Shown: positions 49,936 through 62,674 of the stretch, piece after piece
Position numbering within the stretch: the first letter of the stretch is position 1
How the letters are laid out: the number at the start of each line of letters is the position of its first letter
Source: an uncultured Candidatus Bathyarchaeia archaeon
GTDB taxonomy: Archaea > Thermoproteota > Bathyarchaeia > Bathyarchaeales > Bathycorpusculaceae
Assembly (NCBI GenBank): GCA_964501295.1
Contig: CAZCSF010000004.1
Span: 49,009-113,008 of the forward strand
Reading direction: 5' to 3'
DNA length: 64,000 nt
Program-made: the position numbers and the translations under genes
The notes under the pieces: model-generated
Told to the model about the DNA's origin: nothing
The model's database searches: none
Seen by the model: only the letters and a program-made list of their open reading frames with translations

Positions 49936-50175
49936 TTGGGTTATACCATAACCGAAAAAGGTACGGTAACGATCCCTTCTGAGATTAGGAAGAAATATGG
50001 GTTAAAAAAGGGCTCCATCGTGGAGTTTATTGAAACAGATGAGGGAATACTGATGGTTCCTGTTGTCCCCTTCGAGGACCTTTTCGGGGTAGACAAAGCC
50101 TCTAAAGAAAAAGTTTACCAGATTATAAGAGAACTGCATGAGGAGAGAAGGAGAGAAGCCTCTGAAGAAGAATAA
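49936..50175 (+). CDS. AbrB/SpoVT-family antitoxin (VapB-like)
   Basis: 79 aa. EKGTVTIPSEIRKKYGLKKGSIVEFIE swapped-hairpin motif. Non-ATG start. Confidence 0.7.
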   Translation: MGYTITEKGTVTIPSEIRKKYGLKKGSIVEFIETDEGILMVPVVPFEDLFGVDKASKEKVYQIIRELHEERRREASEEE

Positions 50176-50569
50176 GCTTGTTTTTGACACCGGACCTTTA
50201 TTCCTTTACTTTGCCGAGGACTTGCACGTTAAAGAAGTACTTGATGAAGTGGTTGCTGGAAAGGCTGAAGGCTTTACCTGCGAAACTAACATTGCAGAGT
50301 TGTACTATAAGACGTGCGAAAAGTTTGGACGCGACGTGGCTGAAGTTAGGCAGCTTTCCATAAGACATTCAAAGATTTCAATTCTGCCAATAGATGAAAG
50401 TTTAACACGCACTGCCGGAAGCTTGAAATGCACTCATCGGGGCAAACTTTCACTTGTGGATGCCTACATACTGGCGGCTGTGAAAATGCTTGAAGGAACA
50501 CTGATAACGACGGATCCAAGGCTTAAGGAACTAAAAATAGTGCCAACCAAACTGATCAAAATTCCATAG
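50138..50569 (+). CDS. PIN-domain ribonuclease, VapC-like toxin
   Basis: LVFDTGPL, ETNIAELYY, LSLVDAYILAA, LITTDPRL. The true start is probably downstream of 50138, near the antitoxin stop. Confidence 0.7.
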   Translation: MRREGEKPLKKNKLVFDTGPLFLYFAEDLHVKEVLDEVVAGKAEGFTCETNIAELYYKTCEKFGRDVAEVRQLSIRHSKISILPIDESLTRTAGSLKCTHRGKLSLVDAYILAAVKMLEGTLITTDPRLKELKIVPTKLIKIP

Positions 50570-51381: not shown

Positions 51382-51684
51382 TTAAGCCTTTATGGTCCAA
51401 GTTCTGTATTGCAAGTAAATACCGATTAGGGCGAAAACGCCGCCCAAAACCATCAACAGCCCGCCAGCACCGTGCACAATGCTGTTTCCTAGGTTTAAAA
51501 GATAATGGATTGAAAACAGCGAAGCCCCAAAAGCCAGTGCAAAGACTCCAAGGGCTACGAAAACCCAGGGTTTCTCCATGATGCCGCCTTTAAAAACGAG
51601 AAGCAGACGAGCTGTAAAATAAACCAAAAACGCGTTAACAACAAGTGCAACGACGCTTATAATTATGTGAAACATACTTTTCAC
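51382..51684 (-). CDS. small three-TM membrane protein
   Basis: 100 aa with three hydrophobic helices. Confidence 0.4.
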   Translation of the reverse strand: MKSMFHIIISVVALVVNAFLVYFTARLLLVFKGGIMEKPWVFVALGVFALAFGASLFSIHYLLNLGNSIVHGAGGLLMVLGGVFALIGIYLQYRTWTIKA

Positions 51685-51821
51685 CAGTTATTGCCATTTG
51701 CATTACTAATCAGAACTCGAATATCGTAGATGCTATGCTACATTATTAGGGTTATGAAGCAAAAATCCATACGCCAAAATCATGTTCCCGAAGGGTTTGA
51801 CGAATTTCAGTTTTGGTTATG

Positions 51822-52226
51822 TTACCTTCTTCTCTTTTTCTCCGCAGTTTTTCGATCCATTTCCTTCATGTCTTTAATCATTTTATGGAAAAGGCTGTCC
51901 CCACTCCATAAAGAGAAACCGTCCTGTAAAGCCTTTTTGTGGGCTTCGTCGTTGCTGAATCCATTTGCCCGATAATATATTTCCCTTAACTCGTGAAAAA
52001 CTATGTACTTCTCATAAGGCCGCCACATTTCAGAAATCCATATTTCATTCAACGGGATGTTAAGCTCTTTTGCTGCGTTTGTTGCAACATGTTTGTTTTC
52101 GAAAATGACATTGTACGTTGCGTTGTAGTCTTCTAAGAGTTCATGTGGAACGTAACGAATCTTATAGACATGCTCGGCAAATAATCTTATAGTCTCTTCG
52201 TAAAGGCTTTTCTTATAGGGTCTCAT
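51822..52226 (-). CDS. hypothetical protein (orphan)
   Basis: 134 aa. Contains FHELREIYY...DEAH. Basic tail KKRRR. Confidence 0.35.
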   Translation of the reverse strand: MRPYKKSLYEETIRLFAEHVYKIRYVPHELLEDYNATYNVIFENKHVATNAAKELNIPLNEIWISEMWRPYEKYIVFHELREIYYRANGFSNDEAHKKALQDGFSLWSGDSLFHKMIKDMKEMDRKTAEKKRRR

Positions 52227-52348
52227 GCTGTAAATTCGCCAAGGTTTTTATGCAAAAAGAAAGTTTAAATCTTCCTTTGCGACTCCCAACAACACACAAG
52301 CTTATGAATGCTTATATCATTCTTTTAACCTAAAAGTTTAGAACAGTC

Positions 52349-52903
52349 ATGAGCTATATACCGGAACAGGTTAAGCTTTGCTTAAGGGATTTAACTGAAA
52401 GATTAGAAAGGCGTAGGATAAGGTATGTGGTTATAGGGGCTATTCCAGTGCATTTTTATGGTAGACCTAGAACTTCGGCGGATATAGACATTGTGCTTGT
52501 TTCACATGTTTCTAAGGAGAAACTTCAGAAAGCCTTAGCTGATAGGTACACTTTGTATTATAACGGAAAAACCGTGATGAAATTTATTGACGGAGCAACG
52601 AGAACAGGGGTGGATATTCTTCTCTCTTTAAGCATCGCTGGATTAAGTCAAGAATCCTTAAAAAAGCTTAGAAGGGTGGAGGTTGATGATGTGGCAATAA
52701 CCATTCCATGCCCAGAAGACTATATAATAACCAAGTTGAAAGCTAGAAGACCAGACACCTTTGACTTTTCAGATGTTATGTCCGTGCTTTTAAACATGCG
52801 GGAAGAAATAGACTGGAACTACTTGATGAAAAGGGCCGAGGAAGAGGGGTTGGCACATCTCATAAAATATTATAAAGAGGGGTTGAAATGGAAAACCGGT
52901 TGA
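52349..52903 (+). CDS. nucleotidyltransferase-fold (pol-beta-like) protein
   Basis: 184 aa. VVIGAIPVHFYGRPRTSADIDIVL fits the G-x(n)-D-x-D minimal NTase pattern. Confidence 0.5.
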   Translation: MSYIPEQVKLCLRDLTERLERRRIRYVVIGAIPVHFYGRPRTSADIDIVLVSHVSKEKLQKALADRYTLYYNGKTVMKFIDGATRTGVDILLSLSIAGLSQESLKKLRRVEVDDVAITIPCPEDYIITKLKARRPDTFDFSDVMSVLLNMREEIDWNYLMKRAEEEGLAHLIKYYKEGLKWKTG

Positions 52904-53133
52904 AGTCGCCGATTTACAAAAATGGAATACTATTCTGCCCGTACTGCCGCTCTCCGCTCCTAACCATCGAAGAAACACATTTTAAGTTTAAGTGCGCCGT
53001 GTGCCAAAAGCCCCTTGGAAAACTTACCATAGCAACTTTGAAGAAAATGTTTAACGATTTCCCAAAAGAGCTAGCTAAAGAATGGATGTTGGAAATGGAG
53101 GCATGGAAAAAGCTTAGCCTTAACAAATTTTAA
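52888..53133 (+). CDS. small zinc-ribbon protein
   Basis: 81 aa. CPYCRSPL...CAVCQKPL. Overlaps the NTase-fold gene by 16 nt. Confidence 0.4.
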   Translation: MENRLKSPIYKNGILFCPYCRSPLLTIEETHFKFKCAVCQKPLGKLTIATLKKMFNDFPKELAKEWMLEMEAWKKLSLNKF

Positions 53134-53219
53134 CCATTCAAAAATTTGTTAAAATAGAGGTAGGTTTTGGTCTGTGTTTGCCTAATTGTTTTAATAAGAG
53201 TTTTTAACCTCTTTTAATA

Positions 53220-55175
53220 TTGCATACAGAAACACCAGAGGCACGAAAACCAGTGTTAATTCAAGAGGTGATCCTTGAAAACTTCATGAGCTACGAGTAT
53301 GCTAGGGTACCCTTTAAATCTGGCGTAAACGTTGTTTGCGGTCCCAACGGTGCTGGAAAGTCTTCGCTTTTGTTGGCTATTTCCGTAGCCCTTGGGCAGT
53401 CTTACACTGAGCGTTCCAGAAAGCTCAGCGATTTAATTCGTTGGGGCAAAGACCAGGCGCGTATTACGCTTATACTGGATAACACTAAAAAAGGCGGAAA
53501 ACGTCCAGTTGCAAGGTTTAACAAGGACCAGATTTTTCTCACGCGGGTTTTGAGGCGGGACGGCAAATATTGGTTTGAACTTGAGAATCGGGCTGCTACG
53601 AAACAGGATGTGGAAAGGCTTTTGGCTAAGCTGGGCGTTGACCCGGATAACATGCTTATTATCATGCATCAGAACATGGTGGAACAGTTTACAGTGCTTT
53701 CGCCGCAGGAAAAACTGCGGATGGTTGAGGCTGCTGTAGGGTTGGAGCCTTATCGCGAAAACGTGCTTCAAGCCCAGAAAAAGCTTACACGAATATTAAG
53801 CCAAGAAGAGTCTATAAGCAAGCTTTTGGAGTCGGCGGAGCAGACGCTCAACTATTGGAGAGAACAGTACGATAGATTTCAAGAGAAGAAGCAGTTGATG
53901 GCGAAGAGGCGGTTTCTTGAGCGGGAACTTGCATGGGCAGAGGTTAACCGAAGAGAAGGCATAGTTAAAGAGTTGGAGGCAAACCGTGAAAAGGAGCTAG
54001 CCCTTTTAAGGCAAATTGAGGGCGAGGCAAAAACAGCAGAGGAACATCTTCAAACGCAACAAAGCCAGCTTGAAAAGCTAAAAGGCGAATGGAAGAGAAG
54101 CCTCGATGAGACTATAAGCCTTGAAAGGGAAAAGGCTGGAAGCCAAGCAACAATTTCGCTTTGTGAACCACTGCTTGTAGAAGCAGCCTTTCTAGAAAAC
54201 GAAGCCCATAGCAGTGAACACCATTTGAAACTCTTGAAAACTGAAAGTTTAAAGTGGCTTATAGAAAGTTCAAGGCAGAAAATTTCAAAGCTTGATGAAG
54301 AGCTCAACAGAAAGCTGTCAGAAACAAGGGTTTTTGAAGAGCAAATCGAGAAGGTTAGAAGCCAAATCCTCGGCACGCGCGTTAAACTTGCGCTGCTCCA
54401 GTACCGAATGGAAAACGCTAAAGCCAATATTGAAAGGCTGGAAAGAGAACTAAACGATGCTAAAGCCCAGATGGACACGGCTATAAAAAGGGCTGAGGAA
54501 ACTGGTCCAAGAATCGCTGTTATAAAAAATGTCGGCGAAATTTTAGATGAAATCCGCGTGACAGATGGGCATTTAGCTGCTTTGGCTGGCGTCTCCGAAG
54601 ATGTGGAACGCATGTACGAGTCGTATTCAAAACTTTACCTAGAACTAAAAGAGAAGGCACAGCTTGTGGCTGAAAACCGTGAAAAAGCCTTGGAAGAAGT
54701 TAAGGCGCGCATGCAAGCATGGCGAACAGTGATCCAAAGCCTCCTAGACCGTGTAAACCCAGAGTATCAGAAAATCCTAGCGCAGTCTCAGGCGGTTGGT
54801 GAAGTTAGGCTTGTAAATGAGCACGATATTGAGGCGGCTGGACTTGAAATCCTCGTAGGCTTTAAAGGTGGAAAACCAGTTCCGTTAAACGCTTACACGC
54901 AAAGCGGAGGAGAAAGGACGACAGCAACAATGAGTTTTCTGCTGGCTTTGCAACAGCATGTACGCTCGCCCTTCCGTGCAGTAGATGAATATGATGTGCA
55001 CATGGATCCGAAAAACCGTGAAGTGATAGCGCAGATGCTGATTTCAACTGTTAAAAACGCTAACGCCCAGTATGTTGTTATAACCCCAAGCCAAGTAACA
55101 TTCACAGAAGACAAGGTTAACATAATCACCGTCCAGAACATTGAAGGGAAATCCATAATCAAAGAGGTTGCCTAA
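53220..55175 (+). CDS. short SMC-family ATPase with SMC5/6-like head motifs and no recognisable hinge
   Basis: 651 aa. N-head VILENFMSYEYARVPFKSGVNVVCGPNGAGKSSLLLAISVALG. About 330 aa of heptad-rich coiled coil. C-head signature QSGGERTTATMSFLLALQ and Walker B FRAVDEYDVHMD. TTG start is provisional. Confidence 0.75.
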   Translation: MHTETPEARKPVLIQEVILENFMSYEYARVPFKSGVNVVCGPNGAGKSSLLLAISVALGQSYTERSRKLSDLIRWGKDQARITLILDNTKKGGKRPVARFNKDQIFLTRVLRRDGKYWFELENRAATKQDVERLLAKLGVDPDNMLIIMHQNMVEQFTVLSPQEKLRMVEAAVGLEPYRENVLQAQKKLTRILSQEESISKLLESAEQTLNYWREQYDRFQEKKQLMAKRRFLERELAWAEVNRREGIVKELEANREKELALLRQIEGEAKTAEEHLQTQQSQLEKLKGEWKRSLDETISLEREKAGSQATISLCEPLLVEAAFLENEAHSSEHHLKLLKTESLKWLIESSRQKISKLDEELNRKLSETRVFEEQIEKVRSQILGTRVKLALLQYRMENAKANIERLERELNDAKAQMDTAIKRAEETGPRIAVIKNVGEILDEIRVTDGHLAALAGVSEDVERMYESYSKLYLELKEKAQLVAENREKALEEVKARMQAWRTVIQSLLDRVNPEYQKILAQSQAVGEVRLVNEHDIEAAGLEILVGFKGGKPVPLNAYTQSGGERTTATMSFLLALQQHVRSPFRAVDEYDVHMDPKNREVIAQMLISTVKNANAQYVVITPSQVTFTEDKVNIITVQNIEGKSIIKEVA

Positions 55176-55999
55176 TGCAGTCGAAAAGGGAACACGTTAA
55201 GATTGGAAGAGAAAAGCTTCAGCGCATAATTGAGATGTGCAGGTCTGTTGAAGAGCGCTCCCTAGATCCTTTCCTAATAGACGTTGACGAAATCATTAAA
55301 GTTGTAAGGGAATTTTTCCCAGAATGGGAGCAACCCGAAGACTTATGCTTGGATGCTGAAACAATAAACCGCCTAGCCTCTGTTATAAGGCTTCAAAGTG
55401 AATGGGTTAAACACCGTTCAACATCCCTCTACACAGACCCTTTCCTCCTAGAAGAGAAACTTAGGCGTTTAGGAAAGGAGGAAATGGTGGAAGCCTTTCT
55501 TCAGACTTGGCATCCAATAGTTGAAATGGAGCAAATTTCCATCCACAGTTTGAAAGAAGCAACCCGCTACTGGGAAAGCCTTCCGCCGTTGAAAGAGCGA
55601 TGGAAGGAGTTTCCCATACCAGAGGAAGGAGCTGGAGCTGCCACCCGTGAAGAGCTGATTAGGCAGAGAATCCTCCGCGATAAAGCCTTCACAGAGGAGC
55701 TTGAAAACTTCTGGAATGAACTGAAAAGACTGGTAAAGGAAGAGGGAGAAAGCGGAAAGATTCAGTATTGGGATTTCGTTGGCGCAGAAACCTACGAAGA
55801 AACAGTCTACAGAGCCTTTATGACAAGCTTTCTCGTCACATATGGCTACGCAACTCTTGAAATTCACCCTTTGGAAGAGGAAATCCACATTAGACCCTAT
55901 GAAAAACAGCAGAGGAAAATAGCTAAAAAACAGCTGGTTTCGGTGCCAATAGCCATAACCTTTGAAGAATGGGAGAAATGGAGAAAGGAGCACGCTTAA
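55175..55999 (+). CDS. kleisin-like protein (ScpA/Nse4-like)
   Basis: 274 aa. The ATG overlaps the SMC-like stop (TAATG). The C-terminus ETVYRAFMTSFLVTYGYATLEIHPLEEEIHIRPY resembles the ScpA winged-helix tail. Confidence 0.5.
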   Translation: MQSKREHVKIGREKLQRIIEMCRSVEERSLDPFLIDVDEIIKVVREFFPEWEQPEDLCLDAETINRLASVIRLQSEWVKHRSTSLYTDPFLLEEKLRRLGKEEMVEAFLQTWHPIVEMEQISIHSLKEATRYWESLPPLKERWKEFPIPEEGAGAATREELIRQRILRDKAFTEELENFWNELKRLVKEEGESGKIQYWDFVGAETYEETVYRAFMTSFLVTYGYATLEIHPLEEEIHIRPYEKQQRKIAKKQLVSVPIAITFEEWEKWRKEHA

Positions 56000-56554
56000 A
56001 TGAGCAAAAGGAAAGCTTACTACGCAAGTAAAATGAAACGCGCAGTCCACATGCTTTTCTACCGAAGACACAAAAAGCCTGGAGTTAAAGGCTGGGAACT
56101 CCGCAAAGCCTTAGGAGCAGACTATCCAAAAGTCTTAAACATTTTAGACGATTACTTGAAAGCTCTTGACTTGCAGGTTAAGACGGTTTTTGAAGAGGAG
56201 AAACCCGTTGAAAAACCAACCCCCGAACAGTTGGACAAAGCAAGATTCTACATAACATTACGCGGCGAACTCACGCCAAAAGAGGCGAAGATGATTGGCT
56301 GGCGAATAGACGATTTGGCAGGACTAGCCATAACCATAGCCTACATAATATCAAAGAAGGGCAAAGCACCCCGCAAAGAGGTGGAAGAACTGCTGCGGGA
56401 AAAATTGCCCGGATGGAAAGTCGGTCTTAACATAGACCGTTATATACGTTATGGATACTTAACGCAAGACGAGAATGAACAGTTGTATTTGGATTGGCGA
56501 ACACGGGTAGAAGTAGACCAGAAAGCGCTAATAGACGTTCTTTTGTCAAAGTAG
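56000..56554 (+). CDS. kite-like tandem winged-helix protein (ScpB/Nse3-MAGE-like)
   Basis: 184 aa. The ATG directly follows the kleisin-like stop. KMKRAVHMLFYRRHKKPGVKGWELRKALG, LAGLAITIAYIISKKGKAPRKEVEELL and YLDWRTRVEVDQKALIDVL resemble MAGE-homology WH-A and WH-B blocks. Confidence 0.45.
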   Translation: MSKRKAYYASKMKRAVHMLFYRRHKKPGVKGWELRKALGADYPKVLNILDDYLKALDLQVKTVFEEEKPVEKPTPEQLDKARFYITLRGELTPKEAKMIGWRIDDLAGLAITIAYIISKKGKAPRKEVEELLREKLPGWKVGLNIDRYIRYGYLTQDENEQLYLDWRTRVEVDQKALIDVLLSK

Positions 56555-56629
56555 TTTTTTGTTGAAGTTGATGGAGTCGCAAAGTTTATATCCATCGTTT
56601 TTAATTTGATAATTATCGAATTGAAATAG

Positions 56630-57220
56630 ATGAATATAAATTTGGGAGGAAAAAGGGATTTGTCTGAAGAAGAGGATATTAAAGAGGAACTAAAAAAGCT
56701 CAGAAACGAGATTGCAAGCTTAAAAGAACAGCTTAGAGACGCTCAAGAGCGAAGAAAAGAAAGAGGATACAAATTCTACATAGACATCGGCAACAACATC
56801 CGAGAATCCGTTGAAGATGCTCTAGAAAGCGTAGCTGAAAGCATCCACGGAGAACTTGAAAAATCCATATTCATAGGTCCAAGAGGCGTAAAGATAATAA
56901 AGGGAAAAGTTAGCGAAAAAGAGGAAGCCCCCGTAGACTTTTCGAAAACAGCTGAAATAATGAACGCGTTAAGCCACGAACATAGGTTAAAAATATTAAA
57001 GGAACTCATGAGCGGAGGCAAATATGTAAACGAGTTACAGGAAAAACTTCCGGAAATCACAACAAGCACCCTTCTAAGCCACCTTAAAATTTTGGAAGAA
57101 GCAGGACTCGTGGTTCAGGAAAAGGTAAGAGGACGCTACCTAATAACGATGCCTGGAAGAACTGCCTACAAAATGGCGTTTAAAGTAGCAAGGTTTGTGG
57201 AAGAGAGTGATTTAGAATGA
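56630..57220 (+). CDS. ArsR-family winged-helix regulator with ~100-aa N-terminal coiled-coil extension
   Basis: 196 aa. The C-terminus ALSHEHRLKILKELMSGGKYVNELQEKLPEITTSTLLSHLKILEEAGLV is a classic ArsR HTH. Confidence 0.7.
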   Translation: MNINLGGKRDLSEEEDIKEELKKLRNEIASLKEQLRDAQERRKERGYKFYIDIGNNIRESVEDALESVAESIHGELEKSIFIGPRGVKIIKGKVSEKEEAPVDFSKTAEIMNALSHEHRLKILKELMSGGKYVNELQEKLPEITTSTLLSHLKILEEAGLVVQEKVRGRYLITMPGRTAYKMAFKVARFVEESDLE

Positions 57221-57834
57221 TATGGCACAATTATCAACTGGACGACGCTGTTCAAAAAGTAGTAGAAGCGACCACGTTGTGGAAAACGGAAAAAGGCATT
57301 TTAGAAATCAGCAAAGACACGCTGGCAGTGTTGATAAAAGTAAATGACCACAAAATAGGCTGCGTGTTTCACGGCGACGGCAAACTAATTCTAGACACAA
57401 TCGTCGAAACCGACGAGGGCGCCATCGGCAAGCCCATTGAAAAAGAGATTGAAAAACCCTTCATAATGATTGGAAACGTTGAGCATGTTCTACGAAATCT
57501 GGTTGTTGCAAACAGACAAGACCTAGCAAAGAAAGGATATGCAGATGAACGCGAATTTATCGAAAGAGCAGAAGGTTTATGCAAACGTTTCTTCGGAGAA
57601 AGCCCAAGAGTGCACAGACACGGCGCATTCGAGCAAGGCTTAGTTTTCGCTTTCACAAGCGACGACGCCTCTGGCTTAGACATTTTAATCATTAAAAATT
57701 CTAAAATTGTCTATAAGACACGCTGCATGACGTTTATCTCAAACGAAAACAAGATTGTATTGAAAACTCCGGGGAAAACAGTGTTGTCAAATGATGGAAA
57801 ATCAATTGTCTTAGGTGAGCAACGCTTTTTCTAA
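57217..57834 (+). CDS. hypothetical protein translationally coupled to the ArsR-like gene
   Basis: 205 aa with a 4-nt ATGA overlap. No motif recognised. Confidence 0.4.
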   Translation: MIWHNYQLDDAVQKVVEATTLWKTEKGILEISKDTLAVLIKVNDHKIGCVFHGDGKLILDTIVETDEGAIGKPIEKEIEKPFIMIGNVEHVLRNLVVANRQDLAKKGYADEREFIERAEGLCKRFFGESPRVHRHGAFEQGLVFAFTSDDASGLDILIIKNSKIVYKTRCMTFISNENKIVLKTPGKTVLSNDGKSIVLGEQRFF

Positions 57835-58518: not shown

Positions 58519-58856
58519 TCGCTTCCTCCGTGTGTCCCCTCTAATTCGACAGTTTCTATTAATCTGAGAATTTCTGAGTCGCCGGGTTCTCTTATAGTTA
58601 ACGCTGAAATAATGAAGGGTTTTCCACAAACCATGGCTAAATCTGTTGATGACCCTTTATACACGATTAAGGGGATGCTGGAAAGCCGGCAATAGTATTC
58701 TAGGTCTCTGCGGATTTCCATTGGACAATTAGAGGCTATAATTATCATTTTGGCTTTCCCTGTTCTAGCGCTTTGTATGGCGAAGTTTGCGCCAAAATAA
58801 ACTTTACCAGTTTTCACAGCGGTTGTTATTGCTTTATTTACATCTATGTCTGTCAT
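58515..58856 (-). CDS. rpl30e: 50S ribosomal protein L30e
   Basis: 113 aa. AVKTGKVYFGANFAIQSARTGKAKMIIIASNCP...SSIPLIVYKGSSTDLAMVCGKPF. Confidence 0.85.
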   Translation of the reverse strand: MTDIDVNKAITTAVKTGKVYFGANFAIQSARTGKAKMIIIASNCPMEIRRDLEYYCRLSSIPLIVYKGSSTDLAMVCGKPFIISALTIREPGDSEILRLIETVELEGTHGGSE

Positions 58857-61800
58857 TTGTTCTCCCTCTTCAACTCTGAAGTGGACATGAAAAGCTCCAC
58901 CAAGCCCGTGCCTACTGGTATAGATTGGCCAACTATAACGTTTTCAGTTACGCCTTCCAGCGGATCGCTTTCCCCTCGGATGGCTGCATCCACAATGTTT
59001 GGAACAGTTATTTCGAAGGCTGCTCTGGCTAGGACGCTGGCTTTTTTGCCGCTTATGCCGTGTCTTCCAATTTGCTGCACTTCGCCAGTAGCGGTCATCA
59101 TGTCTGAAACAAGCATTACATGGCGTATGTCAACATCTAACCCTTGCTCTTCTAAAACGTTTTTAGCCTCTTGTATGAGGACATTCCTTGCAGCCTCTAT
59201 TCCCAAGGTTTTGGCTATTTCGTGAATGTTGTTTGTTGTTGTCCTAGTGGTGTCAACTCCGTAAACTTCTAAAACTTTGGAGAGATTTGAGCCGTCGGTT
59301 CTGATAACCCACTCGCCATGCTCCTCTGTAACCAAAACACGCTTTATACCTGGAACACCCTTAATGTAGAAGGAGGAAACTTTGTCCAAGAGTTTTTTGA
59401 GGACTTCAGCTTTTTTAGGCTTTATGTGCACGCGGTTCCCGCTTATTTTCACGGTGCAGTTTGCTATTTTCAATTCATCCCTAAGCTCTTGAACTGTTAT
59501 TCCCCTGTCTTCCATCATGGCTTTGTTTAGCTCCACAACTATTTCTTCGCGTACCGGATCTTGATAAATTGCCTCCGCTATATTCTCCAATGTTGTGTAA
59601 AGTATGTTCCGTGCGATTTTGACAGCCGCTTCTTTGCTCTTCCTATGCTTCTCATCCAAGTAGATGACCATTATTGGTGTTGATGGAACCCTTCTGGCAT
59701 CCACAATCTCTATCAGCCGGGGCAAACCTAGAGTTACGTTTTGCTCTCTGACTCCAGCATAGTGGAAAGTTCTAAGGGTCATCTGGGTGCCTGGCTCGCC
59801 TATGGACTGGGCGGAGACTATGCCAACGGCTTCACCTGGCTCCATTAAAGCCTTTTTGTAATGTTCAACTGTCAACTCTACGGCTTTGTCAACGCCTTCC
59901 TTGCTCAGCTTTGCTTCCGCCAAGCCTTGCCTAAGTTCGTTTATAAGCATTGGTGTCAGTTGATCCTCAACTTCTTTCAGTTTATTTTTGATATATTCTG
60001 GAGAGGCTGGCTTACCCTTTTCCATTCCGATTCTTATCTGCTCAATTAAGCGGTTAACGTTCACAGCCTTTCCATGGTCGCTTTTGGCGGGATCAACACC
60101 ATCCTCACCATATTTGAATTGGATTATGTCTCCAGCTGAGCTTCTCACGGTTCCATCGTATTCTAAGCGAAGGTGTTCCAGCGCATTGATTAGCCGCCTC
60201 TGCATGTAACCGCTCTGCTGCGTCCTAACAGCCGTGTCCACTAGGCCTTCTCTTCCTCCCATGGCGTGGAAGAAGAATTCAATGGAGTCTAAACCCTTCT
60301 GGTATGAAGAGTAAACAAAACCCCTTGCCTTTGGGGTTGGATCGCCATATTTAAAGTGGGGTAAGGCGCGGCCGATATATCCTCTCATTATTCGTTTTCC
60401 ACGGACTGCTTGTTGTCCCACACATGCACTCATCTGTCCAATGTTGAGGGCTGAACCTCTAGCGCCAGTGCGGGTCATGATTATGCCTGAATTTTCAAGA
60501 GCGAAATCTTCATCAGCTATTTTTCCAGACTCGTCCCTTGCTTTAGCCAGTTCGTTCATTACGTAAATTTCAAAGGAGTCCTCCAGAGTCTGCCCGGGAA
60601 GCCTTTGTAATGTGCCGTTGCGATAGCTTTCCACAAGCTCGCTGATCCTTTTCTCAACCCTTTCCATAATTTTTCTTATCTTACTCTCAGCCTGCGGTGA
60701 AAGAACAAGCTCTTCATAGGAGTATGTGAAACCCCGCATTGTTATGAAAAGTTTCAACAACCGCGTAATCTTATTTATAAACGCGCGTCCAGATTCCGTC
60801 CCATAATCTTTTATTATTCTGTGAAGGAGGCTTTCAGACTGTTCAGCTCCTATGGCGCGTCTGTCGATTACGCCGCTTATGAGTTCGCCGTTTTTAACAA
60901 CAACGTAGGCGTCGTAGGGGCATTCCTCTTTTAGGCATTTGGAGCATCCATGGCAAATGTTCGCCTTCAAAACATAGTTCAAGTCTTTGGGAAGGAAGAG
61001 GCTGAAGATTTGTTTACCACTCCACATAGGTTGCGGTTCTTTAATCTGGGGTTCAGGCAAAGGTCCTTCGTATTCAGCCGCCATTAACAATCTGCTGACT
61101 TCATCCTTTGTGAGGTAGTTGGATTTTCTGGTGAAGAGATAGGCAGCTGTTATAAAATCTCGAATTGCTCCTATTATTGGACCGCCAAACCTTGGAGAAA
61201 GTATCTGGTCTTGAACCTGCATTAAAAGGCGGGCTTCTGTTTGAGCCTCTTCACTTTGGGGAATGTGAAGGTTCATCTCGTCTCCGTCAAAGTCAGCGTT
61301 GTAGGGTGGACACACACATAGGTGAAGCCTAAACGTCTTGTATGGGAGAACCCGTACACGATGCGCCATTATGGACATTCTGTGAAGGGATGGCTGACGA
61401 TTGAAGATGGCTATGTCGCCGTTTTTAAGGTGTCTTTCAACAATAAACCCTGGCTCAAGGGCTTCAGCGATCTTCTCCCTATCAGCCACAAATTCAAGCC
61501 TAATGCGTTTGCCGTCTGGACGGATAATGTAAAGAGCCCCGGGATATTTTAATGGTCCATTTATGACAAGTTTCCGCATTTCTTCAATGTTCCATGGAGT
61601 TACTTTTTCGGGCACTGAAAGCCTCATGGCAACTTCCATGGGCACGCCAACCTCGTTGATGTCGAGGTTGGGATCTGGAGATATGACTGTGCGCGCTGAA
61701 AAGTCAACCCTCTTCCCGGAAAGGTTGCTTCTGAATCTTCCCTCCTTTCCCTTCAGCCTCTGAGAAAGCGTTTTTAGGGCTCTGCCGGAACGGTGCCTTG

Positions 61801-62674
61801 CCGGCGGTATTCCAGAAGCTTCATTGTTGAAGTATGTTGTCACATGATATTGGAGAAGCTCTGACAGGTCTTGAATTATGAGCGTTGGGGCTCCAGCATC
61901 CATGTTTTCCTTCAGTCTTTGATTAATTCGGATTATATCCACAAGTTTATGTGTCAAATCGTCTTCTGAACGTATGCCAGACTCCAAAGTTATGGATGGA
62001 CGCACGTAAACGGGTGGAACTGGTAGCACTTGTAAAACCATCCATTCTGGGCGGGCGGTTTTAGGGTCGAAGCCTAAAAGTTCAAGGTCTTCGTTGGGTA
62101 TGCGCTCAAGCCTCTCCCTAACCATGCTTGGCGTTAAAAGCTGGGCACCGCTTTCAGGGATTTCCTCGCTGAATTTTGTTGGTTTTTCAAAGGTTATTTT
62201 GTATTGGGAGGCATTGCAGTGGGGGCAAGTTTTAGATTTAGTTTCTTGAACTATCCTCTTAAACATTTCATCCGGAACCGTTCCCAAAAGTTGGCGGGTT
62301 TTTTCAATTCTAGCCCGCAGTTTTTTGACGGAGTCTTCTGGAAGGAGCATTCTCCCACAGTTTCTGCAAGTTGTTCTCAAAAGGTCGTAAATTATTCTAG
62401 CGAATTCGATGTGGATTATGGGAACTGCAAGCTCGATGTGGCCGAAGTGTCCTGGACAGCGGATCGCCGTGTTCCCGCAGGTTTTGCATCTTTGCCTTGG
62501 TTCAAGGGTTCCAAGACGCCCATCCATCAGCCCAGCGGTTATTGGAGCGCCATCCTCATCATAAGTGTCTGGAGTTTGAATTTCAACAACTGAAAGTTTG
62601 CGTATTTCTTGCGGCGAAAAAAATCCAAAACGAATTTCATCGACAACTTTATGGGCAACTTCTTCTAACGCCAT
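58853..62674 (-). CDS. rpoA: DNA-directed RNA polymerase subunit A (Rpo1), unsplit A'+A'' in a single ORF
   Basis: 1273 aa. Zinc sites CKTCGN...CPGHFGH, catalytic NADFDGDEMNLH, then in the same frame the A''-type region (EPGEAVGIVSAQSIGEPGTQMTLRTFHYAGV ... VIVGQSIPVGTG). Confidence 0.9.
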   Translation of the reverse strand: MALEEVAHKVVDEIRFGFFSPQEIRKLSVVEIQTPDTYDEDGAPITAGLMDGRLGTLEPRQRCKTCGNTAIRCPGHFGHIELAVPIIHIEFARIIYDLLRTTCRNCGRMLLPEDSVKKLRARIEKTRQLLGTVPDEMFKRIVQETKSKTCPHCNASQYKITFEKPTKFSEEIPESGAQLLTPSMVRERLERIPNEDLELLGFDPKTARPEWMVLQVLPVPPVYVRPSITLESGIRSEDDLTHKLVDIIRINQRLKENMDAGAPTLIIQDLSELLQYHVTTYFNNEASGIPPARHRSGRALKTLSQRLKGKEGRFRSNLSGKRVDFSARTVISPDPNLDINEVGVPMEVAMRLSVPEKVTPWNIEEMRKLVINGPLKYPGALYIIRPDGKRIRLEFVADREKIAEALEPGFIVERHLKNGDIAIFNRQPSLHRMSIMAHRVRVLPYKTFRLHLCVCPPYNADFDGDEMNLHIPQSEEAQTEARLLMQVQDQILSPRFGGPIIGAIRDFITAAYLFTRKSNYLTKDEVSRLLMAAEYEGPLPEPQIKEPQPMWSGKQIFSLFLPKDLNYVLKANICHGCSKCLKEECPYDAYVVVKNGELISGVIDRRAIGAEQSESLLHRIIKDYGTESGRAFINKITRLLKLFITMRGFTYSYEELVLSPQAESKIRKIMERVEKRISELVESYRNGTLQRLPGQTLEDSFEIYVMNELAKARDESGKIADEDFALENSGIIMTRTGARGSALNIGQMSACVGQQAVRGKRIMRGYIGRALPHFKYGDPTPKARGFVYSSYQKGLDSIEFFFHAMGGREGLVDTAVRTQQSGYMQRRLINALEHLRLEYDGTVRSSAGDIIQFKYGEDGVDPAKSDHGKAVNVNRLIEQIRIGMEKGKPASPEYIKNKLKEVEDQLTPMLINELRQGLAEAKLSKEGVDKAVELTVEHYKKALMEPGEAVGIVSAQSIGEPGTQMTLRTFHYAGVREQNVTLGLPRLIEIVDARRVPSTPIMVIYLDEKHRKSKEAAVKIARNILYTTLENIAEAIYQDPVREEIVVELNKAMMEDRGITVQELRDELKIANCTVKISGNRVHIKPKKAEVLKKLLDKVSSFYIKGVPGIKRVLVTEEHGEWVIRTDGSNLSKVLEVYGVDTTRTTTNNIHEIAKTLGIEAARNVLIQEAKNVLEEQGLDVDIRHVMLVSDMMTATGEVQQIGRHGISGKKASVLARAAFEITVPNIVDAAIRGESDPLEGVTENVIVGQSIPVGTGLVELFMSTSELKRENK

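Follow-up and report, generated by a model that had tools for sequence, protein, structure and literature searches.

The window analysed here, 64,000 nucleotides of a contig from an uncultured Candidatus Bathyarchaeia archaeon, carries three consecutive ORFs on its forward strand, at positions 53220/53253-55175 (ORF1), 55175-55999 (ORF2) and 56000-56554 (ORF3), as stated in an earlier sequence-only reading of the same DNA. That reading also held the three genes to be translationally coupled, and their junctions bear this out. The first reads GCC-TAATG-CAG, so that the final A of the ORF1 stop codon (TAA, 55173-55175) is also the A of the ORF2 ATG at 55175; the second reads GCT-TAA-ATG, with the ORF2 stop at 55997-55999 and the ORF3 ATG directly behind it at 56000. 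The length of 651 aa given for ORF1 is correct if translation begins at the TTG at 53220, but nearly all homologs are 639-640 aa long, and we therefore favor the GTG at 53253, which yields 640 aa. The alternative TTG falls within the upstream intergenic region (53134-53252, + strand), where A/T-rich, TATA-like stretches (gttttaataaga and cttttaata) may serve as a promoter. A run of six T residues directly 3' of the ORF3 stop (56555-56560, + strand) is likely an archaeal oligo-T terminator that marks the end of the operon. Each of the three ORFs has thousands of homologs and their order is kept in distant lineages, so their occurrence side by side reflects more than chance.

ORF1 (53253-55175, + strand) encodes a short SMC5/6-related SMC ATPase, as judged from Pfam, PDB and representative-library searches. 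It matches Pfam SMC_N at 2.4e-37, and its best PDB matches by phmmer are human and yeast SMC5 and SMC6 (2e-30 to 3e-27). Outside its own archaeal family, the best matches in an exhaustive search of 1.84 billion representative proteins were again eukaryotic SMC5/SMC6, from insects, ticks, fungi and amoebozoans, and the best 150 included no canonical prokaryotic SMC. The ORF1 motifs quoted in the sequence-only reading were found in place. In ORF1, NFMSY, QSGGER, DEYDVHMD and QY..ITP are its versions of four head motifs common to the ORF1 family and eukaryotic SMC5/6 (NFM(S/T)Y, QSGGER, DE(F/Y)DVHMDP and QY..ITP), whereas the canonical SMC counterparts are GFKSF, LSGGEK, DEVDAALD and ITH. All catalytic motifs are intact. 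The Walker A motif GPNGAGKS (53340-53363, + strand; residues 30-37 in the 640-aa numbering) is invariant across the family. The stretch from the signature QSGGER (551-555) to the Walker B/D-loop FRAVDEYDVHMD (574-585) occupies 54903-54995 on the + strand, and within it S551, G552, G553, E554, R555, D578, E579, H583 and D585 are invariant in a diverse alignment (A4). A neighbor-joining tree separated the family plus SMC5/6 from canonical SMC in 200 of 200 bootstraps, although it is a crude tree of head domains only, built without SMC1-4 and Rad50 outgroups and open to long-branch effects. The SMC5/6 affinity claimed for ORF1 thus held in four tests: the PDB search, the representative search, the motifs and the head tree.

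The likeness to eukaryotic SMC5/6 heads amounts to only ~30% identity, and Pyrococcus Smc heads score nearly as high against ORF1 in the PDB (98 vs 99-109 bits). One alternative is that the operon encodes an ordinary archaeal condensin (Smc-ScpA-ScpB), diverged and without the original hinge, whose resemblance to SMC5/6 is convergence or a long-branch artefact. The SMC-kleisin-kite gene order is identical to that of Smc-ScpAB, and SMC_prok_A (TIGR02169) is the best NCBIfam match of ORF1 (2.2e-51), but at a score of 174.7 that falls far under the cut-off of 729.4. The four shared head motifs and the composition of the best 150 matches also argue against a condensin, as do the partner proteins.

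Several matches of modest but consistent significance, to Pfam and by family profile, indicate that ORF2 (55175-55999, + strand; 274 aa) is an Nse4-type kleisin. Its C-terminal winged-helix domain (residues 197-271; 55763-55987, + strand), the region that matches Pfam Nse4_C and PDB Nse4 chains, presumably binds the SMC cap. The Nse4_C match of ORF2 itself (E=6e-5, 23.7 bits) lies under the gathering cut-off of 26, and 8 of 12 diverse members of the kleisin family match the same model. The family profile gives E values of 3.2e-4 for yeast Nse4 and 5.2e-4 for human EID3/NSE4B, vs only 0.91 for Pyrococcus ScpA, and neither Pfam ScpA (PF02616) nor ScpB (PF04079) matched any of the 12 kleisins and 11 kites scanned. 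The kleisin with a winged-helix tail that had been proposed for this gene is therefore upheld, as one of the Nse4 type. With a separate canonical operon also reported in Bathyarchaeia (bioRxiv 10.1101/2024.01.07.573240), we regard a hinge-less condensin as very unlikely and read the operon as SMC5/6-related.

The third gene, ORF3 (56000-56554, + strand; 184 aa), is a probable kite with tandem winged helices, an assignment drawn from AF2, Foldseek, profile and synteny data. In a low-confidence AF2 model (mean pLDDT 56.7), its secondary structure runs H-H-H-E-E twice, and the Foldseek top five obtained with that model comprise JetB, MAGE-G1/Nse3, Nse3 and MAGE-A11, at non-significant E values of 0.014-0.045. 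Its profile match to the MAGE domain of Xenopus Nse3 is likewise non-significant (E=0.16), and a Pfam search of ORF3 returned no match. Homologs of ORF3 adjoin the kleisin gene in six other lineages, and Nse1/3-like kites are reported to adjoin Nse4-like kleisins in Bathyarchaeia (bioRxiv 10.1101/2024.01.07.573240), with which ORF3 agrees. The suggestion that ORF3 is a MAGE/Nse3-like kite of two winged helices fits its size, secondary structure and operon position and the published kites, but all of its matches are non-significant; we take these data to point weakly to a kite.

Between the heads of ORF1 lies an antiparallel coiled-coil arm (residues 165-510; 53745-54782, + strand), delimited by AF2, composition and conservation, which has a conserved joint-like break at residues 418-450 (AExxGPR). 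AF2 places arm helices at 165-320, 330-417, 427-443 and 451-510 with arm pLDDT of 85-95, while the head domains stayed below 50 owing to a shallow alignment. The two long helices of the model (165-320 and 330-510), which form a coiled coil of ~155 residues, are linked by a loop of nine residues (321-329; 54213-54239, + strand), at the site expected for a hinge or zinc hook. ORF1 has no Pfam SMC_hinge match, and the AF2 model shows only this loop at the apex. The inter-head region of ~340-346 aa has only one Cys, and so no CxxC hook, along with 9 Gly and 4 Pro. Across the family, the apex is the least conserved and most indel-rich stretch, and long relatives bear an insert of ~380 aa precisely at this position; in two hinge-bearing relatives (P0420 and P0445) the heads are 630-678 aa apart, vs about 340 aa in ORF1. 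The absence of both hinge and CxxC hook, already noted from the letters, is upheld by all of these measures. A globular dimerizing hinge at the end of ~50-nm arms, as in an SMC sensu stricto, is not found in ORF1. The inter-head region measures 249-383 aa in 48 of 53 family representatives, and the short, hinge-less architecture predominates in the archaeal SMC5/6-related family. Arm tips in the clade differ: some are plain loops, orphan Bathyarchaeota paralogs have a Rad50-like CxxC hook, and relatives closer to eukaryotic SMC5/6 have a true hinge; we propose that the tip has been remodelled repeatedly inside this one clade.

RecN, ASRP/ClsN and Sph proteins typically have short coiled coils with no hinge, and ORF1 has sub-threshold NCBIfam matches to Rad50, ASRP and arcadin-4. 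It could accordingly be a repair or nucleoid ATPase of that kind with no relation to kleisin-kite complexes, ORF2 and ORF3 being unrelated small DNA-binding proteins. The profile searches that had been suggested as a check did not place ORF1 in Rad50, RecN or ASRP, its scores lying far under the cut-offs (ASRP 65.5 vs 300, Rad50 87.6 vs 700, arcadin-4 48 vs 860). ORF1 has neither the CxxC hook of Rad50 nor an Mre11 gene as a neighbor, ORF2 carries an Nse4-type C-terminal domain, and the linkage of the three genes is kept across lineages. Taken together, these findings leave such an ATPase extremely unlikely, and favor an SMC working with a kleisin and a kite.

A survey of gene neighborhoods, which had also been suggested as a check, found the three genes syntenic in distant lineages. 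The operon occurs in Thermofilales and Nitrososphaeria as well, and the SMC-kleisin-kite order is kept in Thermofilales, UBA160, Conexivisphaerales and further lineages (loci L001, L002, L084, L086, L087, L088, L090 and L091; homology by phmmer or tblastn). Across the 120 best clusters, identity is at least 89% for the kite and at least 82% for the SMC. In Bathyarchaeia, the operon lies at a constant site in the core genome, where it converges with the NusA-L30e-RpoA-RpoB genes of the RNA polymerase/NusA operon. The flanks had been described as variable and TA-rich. Variable they are, since the toxin-antitoxin, nucleotidyltransferase and ArsR genes near the operon are absent in relatives (neither the ArsR gene nor the 205-aa gene downstream occurs at this position in L090 or L091), but they are not notably AT-rich, and the site of the operon itself is fixed.

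These accessory neighbors bear on whether the operon is instead a defence system of the Wadjet or Lamassu type, in which a short-coiled-coil SMC-like ATPase senses and restricts plasmids or viruses. PADLOC models for SMC-like ATPases do match ORF1 (mad3 2.7e-29, LmuB 4e-22, JetC 3.5e-10), JetB tops the non-significant Foldseek list of ORF3, toxin-antitoxin and nucleotidyltransferase genes lie close by, and eukaryotic SMC5/6 is known to restrict extrachromosomal DNA (mentioned in PMC9458440). The PADLOC matches are, however, weaker than that to SMC_prok_A and reflect generic head similarity, and ORF2 and ORF3 have none. None of the loci examined has a nuclease or effector gene (JetD, LmuA) next to the operon. 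The fixed core site beside the RNA polymerase operon, the absence of the accessory neighbors in relatives, and the very high, vertical conservation across Bathyarchaeia are unlike the patchy distribution of defence islands. We consider a defence system of this type very unlikely. With a probability of roughly 0.85, the operon encodes the Bathyarchaeia version of the SMC5/6-related SMC complex of archaea, in a short-armed and hinge-less form. As it keeps one place in the core genome and is very strongly conserved, its likely role is chromosome maintenance (repair, or organization and segregation) rather than mobile defence.

We envisage that the three translationally coupled genes share one transcript, an arrangement expected to yield their proteins in matched amounts. 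Two SMC copies would join their heads around two ATP molecules, and one Nse4-like kleisin would bridge the pair, binding one SMC at the neck through its N-terminal helical domain and the other at the cap through its C-terminal winged helix. The winged-helix kite would attach as a dimer to the central part of the kleisin. Double-stranded DNA would be held atop the engaged heads by an ATP-gated clamp made up of heads, kleisin and kites, resembling the DNA-clamped state of yeast Smc5/6. With a variable loop instead of a dimerizing hinge at the tip of the arms, the large SMC lumen could not be closed in the usual way; the complex would be expected to act mainly via its head/kleisin compartment, and the ~23-nm arms may zip together or act as a lever.

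The sequence-only reading had raised the possibility that this operon type is new, but it has already been described. The family was reported as the "SMC5/6-related aSMC" (Yoshinaga & Inagaki 2021, PMC8665677), and operons of an SMC5/6-related SMC, an Nse4-like kleisin and an Nse1/3-like kite were reported by van Hooff et al. (bioRxiv 10.1101/2024.01.07.573240), with Bathyarchaeia included. The archaeal SMC lineage is reported as the sister group of the eukaryotic SMC5/6 ancestor. The one feature that appears to be undescribed is the short, hinge-less architecture, as we found no discussion of it in these two papers or in full-text literature searches. At somewhat less than even odds, we suggest that the dominant archaeal SMC5/6-related form is a natural mini-SMC, which has the full kleisin/kite set on half-length arms, has neither a hinge nor a conserved apex dimerization element, and would for that reason function with no closable SMC lumen, for instance solely as an ATP-gated head/kleisin DNA clamp.

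Comparison with known systems places the operon among them as follows. RecN, ASRP/ClsN (coalescin) and Sph resemble ORF1 in that their ABC-type heads are linked by a short antiparallel coiled coil and they have no canonical hinge. To our knowledge, none of them has a kleisin and a kite as partners. The scores of ORF1 lie far under the cut-offs of the RecN and ASRP models (for the latter, NF045487, which covers the family to which ClsN belongs; PMC11344861). Rad50 differs from ORF1, which has a single inter-head Cys, model scores far under the cut-offs and no Mre11 nearby.

Wadjet JetABC(D) and MukBEF/MksBEF combine an SMC, a kleisin and a tandem winged-helix kite, as the operon probably does, and JetB is among the best, albeit non-significant, structural matches of ORF3. 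JetC and MukB, however, have long arms and a hinge, and the Wadjet gene order is JetA-B-C-D, whereas the operon lies in a core-genome context rather than a defence island, has no adjacent JetD/Toprim nuclease, and shows only the weak JetC match of ORF1. Smc-ScpA-ScpB shares, with ORF3 as the probable kite, the SMC-kleisin-kite architecture, the operon order and an expected homodimeric SMC; the operon differs in its short, hinge-less arms and head motifs, in missing the NCBIfam SMC equivalog cut-offs, and in partners that match no ScpA or ScpB model.

Eukaryotic SMC5/6 has in common with the operon its head motifs, the C-terminal domain of an Nse4-type kleisin and, in ORF3, a probable partner of the kite rather than the HAWK type. 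It is, however, a Smc5/Smc6 heterodimer with arms about twice as long as those of ORF1 and a hinge, and has both Nse1 and Nse3, whereas the operon has one SMC gene, from which a homodimer is expected, and one kite gene with no RING domain. Genes for RING, SUMO-ligase (Nse2) or Nse5/6-like proteins were not found in the operon neighborhood, here or in the relatives examined, so that at the level of the neighborhood the heterodimer, two kites, Nse2 and Nse5/6 of the eukaryotic holocomplex have no counterpart. The papers on the archaeal SMC5/6-related complex draw a hinge-dimerized SMC and mention "hinge" only generically, whereas ORF1 and 48 of the 53 representatives are half-length and hinge-less. 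In other respects, the operon and the published archaeal complex agree: both belong to TACK/Thermoproteota, among which the papers name Bathyarchaeia, and both have three subunits with affinities to SMC5/6, Nse4 and (for ORF3, probably) Nse1/3, with heads that group with SMC5/6, an adjacent Nse4-related kleisin and a gene order conserved across TACK archaea.

The three genes lie on the + strand: ORF1, for the SMC5/6-related SMC ATPase, at 53220-55175 (651 aa counted from TTG), ORF2, for the Nse4-like kleisin, at 55175-55999 (274 aa), and ORF3, for the probable kite, at 56000-56554 (184 aa). The coupling described by the sequence-only reading is borne out by these coordinates, as the ORF1 stop and ORF2 start overlap by one base (GCC-TAATG) and ORF2 and ORF3 adjoin with zero spacer (TAA-ATG). 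Nearly all ORF1 homologs are 639-640 aa long, which points to the GTG at 53253 as the likely start (ORF1 residues are numbered from it here), the mechanically assigned TTG at 53220 being probably wrong. By the names that the homologs carry, the window belongs to Bathyarchaeia. TATA-like A/T-rich stretches 5' of ORF1 and a T6 run directly 3' of the ORF3 stop are the putative promoter and terminator of the operon. Several long antisense ORFs of 87-200 aa (- strand, window 53402-55162 and 55469-56071) overlap ORF1 and ORF2. They sit opposite coding sequence with strong conservation, and we assume them to be spurious.

ORF1, all of whose ATPase motifs are intact, matched Pfam SMC_N at 2.4e-37. Its PDB ranking was headed by human SMC5 (2.1e-30), yeast Smc5, human SMC6 (3.2e-27) and yeast Smc6, with Pyrococcus Smc next (5e-27) and SMC1-4 and Rad50 far lower. 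When phmmer was run exhaustively against 1.84 billion representative proteins, 150 scored below 1e-30. The nearest were archaeal proteins of 550-690 aa. A second tier (1e-37 to 1e-31) held proteins of ~830-1150 aa, most above 1000; those with names were SMC5 or SMC6 from insects, a tick and a fungus, accompanied by unannotated fungal and Acytostelium proteins. Canonical prokaryotic Smc was absent from these best 150 matches. The JGI pipeline labels one short homolog "structural maintenance of chromosomes protein 5".

Four motifs are common to eukaryotic SMC5/6 and the family to which ORF1 belongs, the archaeal SMC5/6-related SMCs. The N-terminal block reads NFM(S/T)Y, where canonical SMCs have GFKSF; the signature is QSGGER rather than (L/M)SGGEK; Walker B and the D-loop read DE(F/Y)DVHMDP (DEFDVFMD in SMC6), compared with DE(V/I)(D/E)AALD; and the H-loop region is QY..ITP, against ITH in bacterial SMCs and a variable sequence in canonical archaeal ones. 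A crude neighbour-joining (NJ) tree of the head domains (298 columns) separated the family plus eukaryotic SMC5/6 from canonical archaeal and bacterial SMCs in 200/200 bootstraps with distances capped, and in 167/200 in a run with undefined distances. Published phylogenies agree with this grouping (PMC8665677; bioRxiv 10.1101/2024.01.07.573240). NCBIfam scores for prokaryotic SMC, Rad50, ASRP, arcadin-4 and RecN were far under the cut-offs; membership of ASRP/ClsN, Rad50 and RecN, which the sequence-only reading had named as the case against it, was rejected on this ground. Judged from its sequence, ORF1 is an SMC ATPase whose heads are of the SMC5/6 type; the closeness to Smc5/Smc6 claimed at the outset held in the PDB ranking, the second phmmer tier, the motifs and the tree split.

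Between the heads lie ~346 aa with nine Gly, four Pro and one Cys. AlphaFold2 modelled this arm at pLDDT 85-95. Its main helices span residues 165-320, 330-417 and 451-510; a 9-residue loop (321-329) joins the first two, and short breaks at 418-426 and 444-450 fall between the last two. Only the arms were predicted confidently, the heads being poorly predicted because the alignment was shallow. The modelled arm has ~155 residues of antiparallel coiled coil, a predicted length of ~23 nm. The single Cys and the 9-residue loop bear out the earlier claim that ORF1 has neither a hinge nor a CxxC hook. In the diverse family alignment the apex has the lowest conservation and the most indels, and a break near AExxGPR (about 414-420) is conserved across the family and resembles the SMC joint.

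Among 53 archaeal-family representatives having both heads, the inter-head region measured 249-383 aa in 48, ~735-745 aa with a central CxxC in three, and contained a Gly/Pro-rich, hinge-like globular insert in two. P0371 and P0377 are the two CxxC forms that align collinearly, and both have their additional ~380-420 aa exactly at the ORF1 apex. Given this insertion site and the short regions in 48 of 53 representatives, the short, loop-tipped SMC is the prevailing form of the family and no truncation artefact. The usual SMC subunit of Bathyarchaeia, Thermofilales and Nitrososphaeria is ~580-680 aa long, with ~23-nm arms and no hinge, and this short form still keeps its kleisin and kite partners.

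The CxxC paralogs (P0371, P0377 and P0385) are Bathyarchaeota proteins of 1016-1047 aa whose heads are 45-50% identical to ORF1 and whose ~380-420 additional apex residues include a central KPQI[RK]CDKCGS or CERC, like the Rad50 zinc hook. Their loci include L081:2105-5248 and L085:5001-8087. P0371 and P0377 fall among the short Bathyarchaeia forms in the crude NJ tree, and are orphan genes: neither has a kleisin, kite or Mre11 gene beside it at the two loci examined.

ORF2 alone matched Pfam Nse4_C at E=6e-5 (23.7 bits; cut-off 26), and some close homologs carry precomputed Nse4_C annotation. Searches of the PDB with ORF2 or ORF3, as single sequences or as shallow profiles whose 120 listed homologs are all 74-97% identical, returned nothing significant. 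Generic Walker A matches dominated a contig scan that used the diverse SMC alignment (2/80 loci relevant, L001 and L002); diverse loci were obtained by placing representative proteins on their contigs. All genes taken 3' of diverse short SMCs on these other contigs proved homologous to ORF2 (phmmer E 2e-17 to 6e-46). Through its C-terminal winged helix, a 12-member ORF2-family profile matched yeast Nse4 (3.2e-4), human EID3/NSE4B (5.2e-4) and a further Nse4 chain (9e-4), compared with E=0.91 for the Pyrococcus ScpA C-terminal domain. Taken singly, 8 of the 12 members matched Nse4_C and none matched ScpA. By these profile and family matches ORF2 is an Nse4-type kleisin, which gives a specific identity to what had been read as a kleisin-like protein with a winged-helix tail.

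Homologs of ORF3 always lie after the kleisin (phmmer E 7e-27 to 2e-53, six lineages), and one is present in a hinge-bearing relative (E 2.6e-6); the synteny of both partners 3' of the SMC, which the sequence-only reading had proposed to survey, thus extends to other contigs. The AlphaFold2 model of ORF3, of low confidence (pLDDT 56.7), shows H-H-H-E-E twice and a C-terminal helix, a tandem winged-helix pattern. Its top five Foldseek matches in the PDB were all kites (JetB twice, MAGE-G1/Nse3, Nse3 and MAGE-A11), at E 0.014-0.045 with low TM-scores. The ORF3-family profile aligned collinearly from the N-terminus with the Xenopus Nse3 MAGE domain, a weak match (E=0.16), and Pfam gave none for ORF3. 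Nse1/3-like kites adjoin Nse4-like kleisins in all 31 species having both, many of them Bathyarchaeia (van Hooff et al., bioRxiv 10.1101/2024.01.07.573240). ORF3 is therefore probably a kite, our own tests, with their low-confidence model and weak matches, being consistent with this and short of a demonstration. For the Nse3-like kite first proposed, the place after the kleisin is conserved and the tandem winged helices are predicted at low confidence; the Nse3/MAGE matches were not significant.

Genome GCA_037917675.1 has two related operons (L089:4001-8438 and L083:5001-8356). In the first, the SMC (928 aa) contains a hinge-like insert and groups nearest to eukaryotic SMC5/6 in the NJ tree; after it come a kleisin homolog of 384 aa, which has an additional MarR-like wHTH at its N-terminus, and a 173-aa kite homolog. 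TIP49 adjoins this operon. The second encodes a 628-aa short SMC, a 241-aa protein and, at the kite position, a KaiC/RecA-like ATPase. P0442 (L082:432-2899), a divergent short SMC from a hydrothermal-vent metagenome, is 27% identical; 3' of it come 566 nt without a called gene and then an AsnC-type regulator, with no kleisin or kite among the called genes.

The operon is convergent with NusA-L30e-RpoA-RpoB in the window and likewise, at the same place, in two other Bathyarchaeia genomes (L090 and L091). Accessory genes flank it (window 49936-50569, 51382-53133 and 56630-57834), none of which occurs at this position in L090 or L091. They include a MazE/AbrB antitoxin and PIN toxin pair (49936-50569), DUF6036 nucleotidyltransferase and zinc-ribbon genes (52349-53133), an ArsR-type wHTH gene with an N-terminal coiled coil (56630) and, after it, the gene of a 205-aa protein with no family assigned (57217). 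They are therefore variable insertions and not parts of the system, and the last two are ruled out as added subunits. The variable region noted in the sequence-only reading is thus confined to the flanks, the operon itself being at a fixed place. In this neighbourhood RNA polymerase subunit A is one 1273-aa ORF with Rpb1 domains 1-5 (window 58853-62674, - strand), undivided in L090 and L091 as well; in many archaea it is split into A' and A''. In L091 the gene immediately 5' of the SMC gene, in the same orientation, is an FtsZ/tubulin gene (L091:6626-7705).

GC content near the operon is unremarkable, and over the best 120 90%-clusters identity is at least 89% for the kite and at least 82% for the SMC. 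No nuclease or other effector gene was linked to the operon in any locus examined, and PADLOC gave generic ATPase matches only, which speaks against a defence system. The fixed position, the conservation, the missing effector and the generic PADLOC matches lead us to favour a chromosome housekeeping role over mobile defence. We propose that the SMC would act as an ATP-engaged homodimer, bridged asymmetrically by one kleisin bearing a kite dimer, and that DNA would be clamped on the heads by analogy with the structure of yeast Smc5/6 bound to DNA. The SMC lumen is unlikely to be closed, there being no conserved dimerisation element at the apex; the arms may align together as a rod or serve as a lever.

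The operon belongs to an archaeal lineage already proposed in the literature as the source of eukaryotic SMC5/6, and bears on the origin of the eukaryotic chromosome-maintenance toolkit. Added here is that the usual SMC is short and hinge-less, has its partners and shows very strong conservation at its core locus. The two family papers and full-text searches yielded no mention of this architecture, and nothing on hinge-less or short archaeal SMC5/6-like proteins was found beyond those papers. The residual interest lies in this "mini-SMC" architecture and the variety of arm tips in the clade. If confirmed biochemically, it would offer a small natural system for testing the need for a hinge and long arms in clamping, loop extrusion and topological entrapment, and would help in deciding whether the hinge was lost or gained along the SMC5/6 branch.

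The tests for membership of Smc-ScpAB, Wadjet, ASRP/ClsN and Rad50 were negative. Nor does the operon encode a eukaryote-type SMC5/6 holocomplex: it has a single SMC and a single kite, and its neighbourhood lacks Nse2 and Nse5/6. The locus belongs to the "SMC5/6-related aSMC" group (Yoshinaga & Inagaki 2021) and to the SMC5/6-related SMC-kleisin-kite operons of van Hooff et al., whose example table has a Bathyarchaeota cluster ordered SMC, kleisin, kite (bioRxiv 10.1101/2024.01.07.573240). The sequence-only reading, which left novelty to a literature check, was therefore correct about the feature, and the finding is not new: it is a real, correctly read member of an already published family and operon type.
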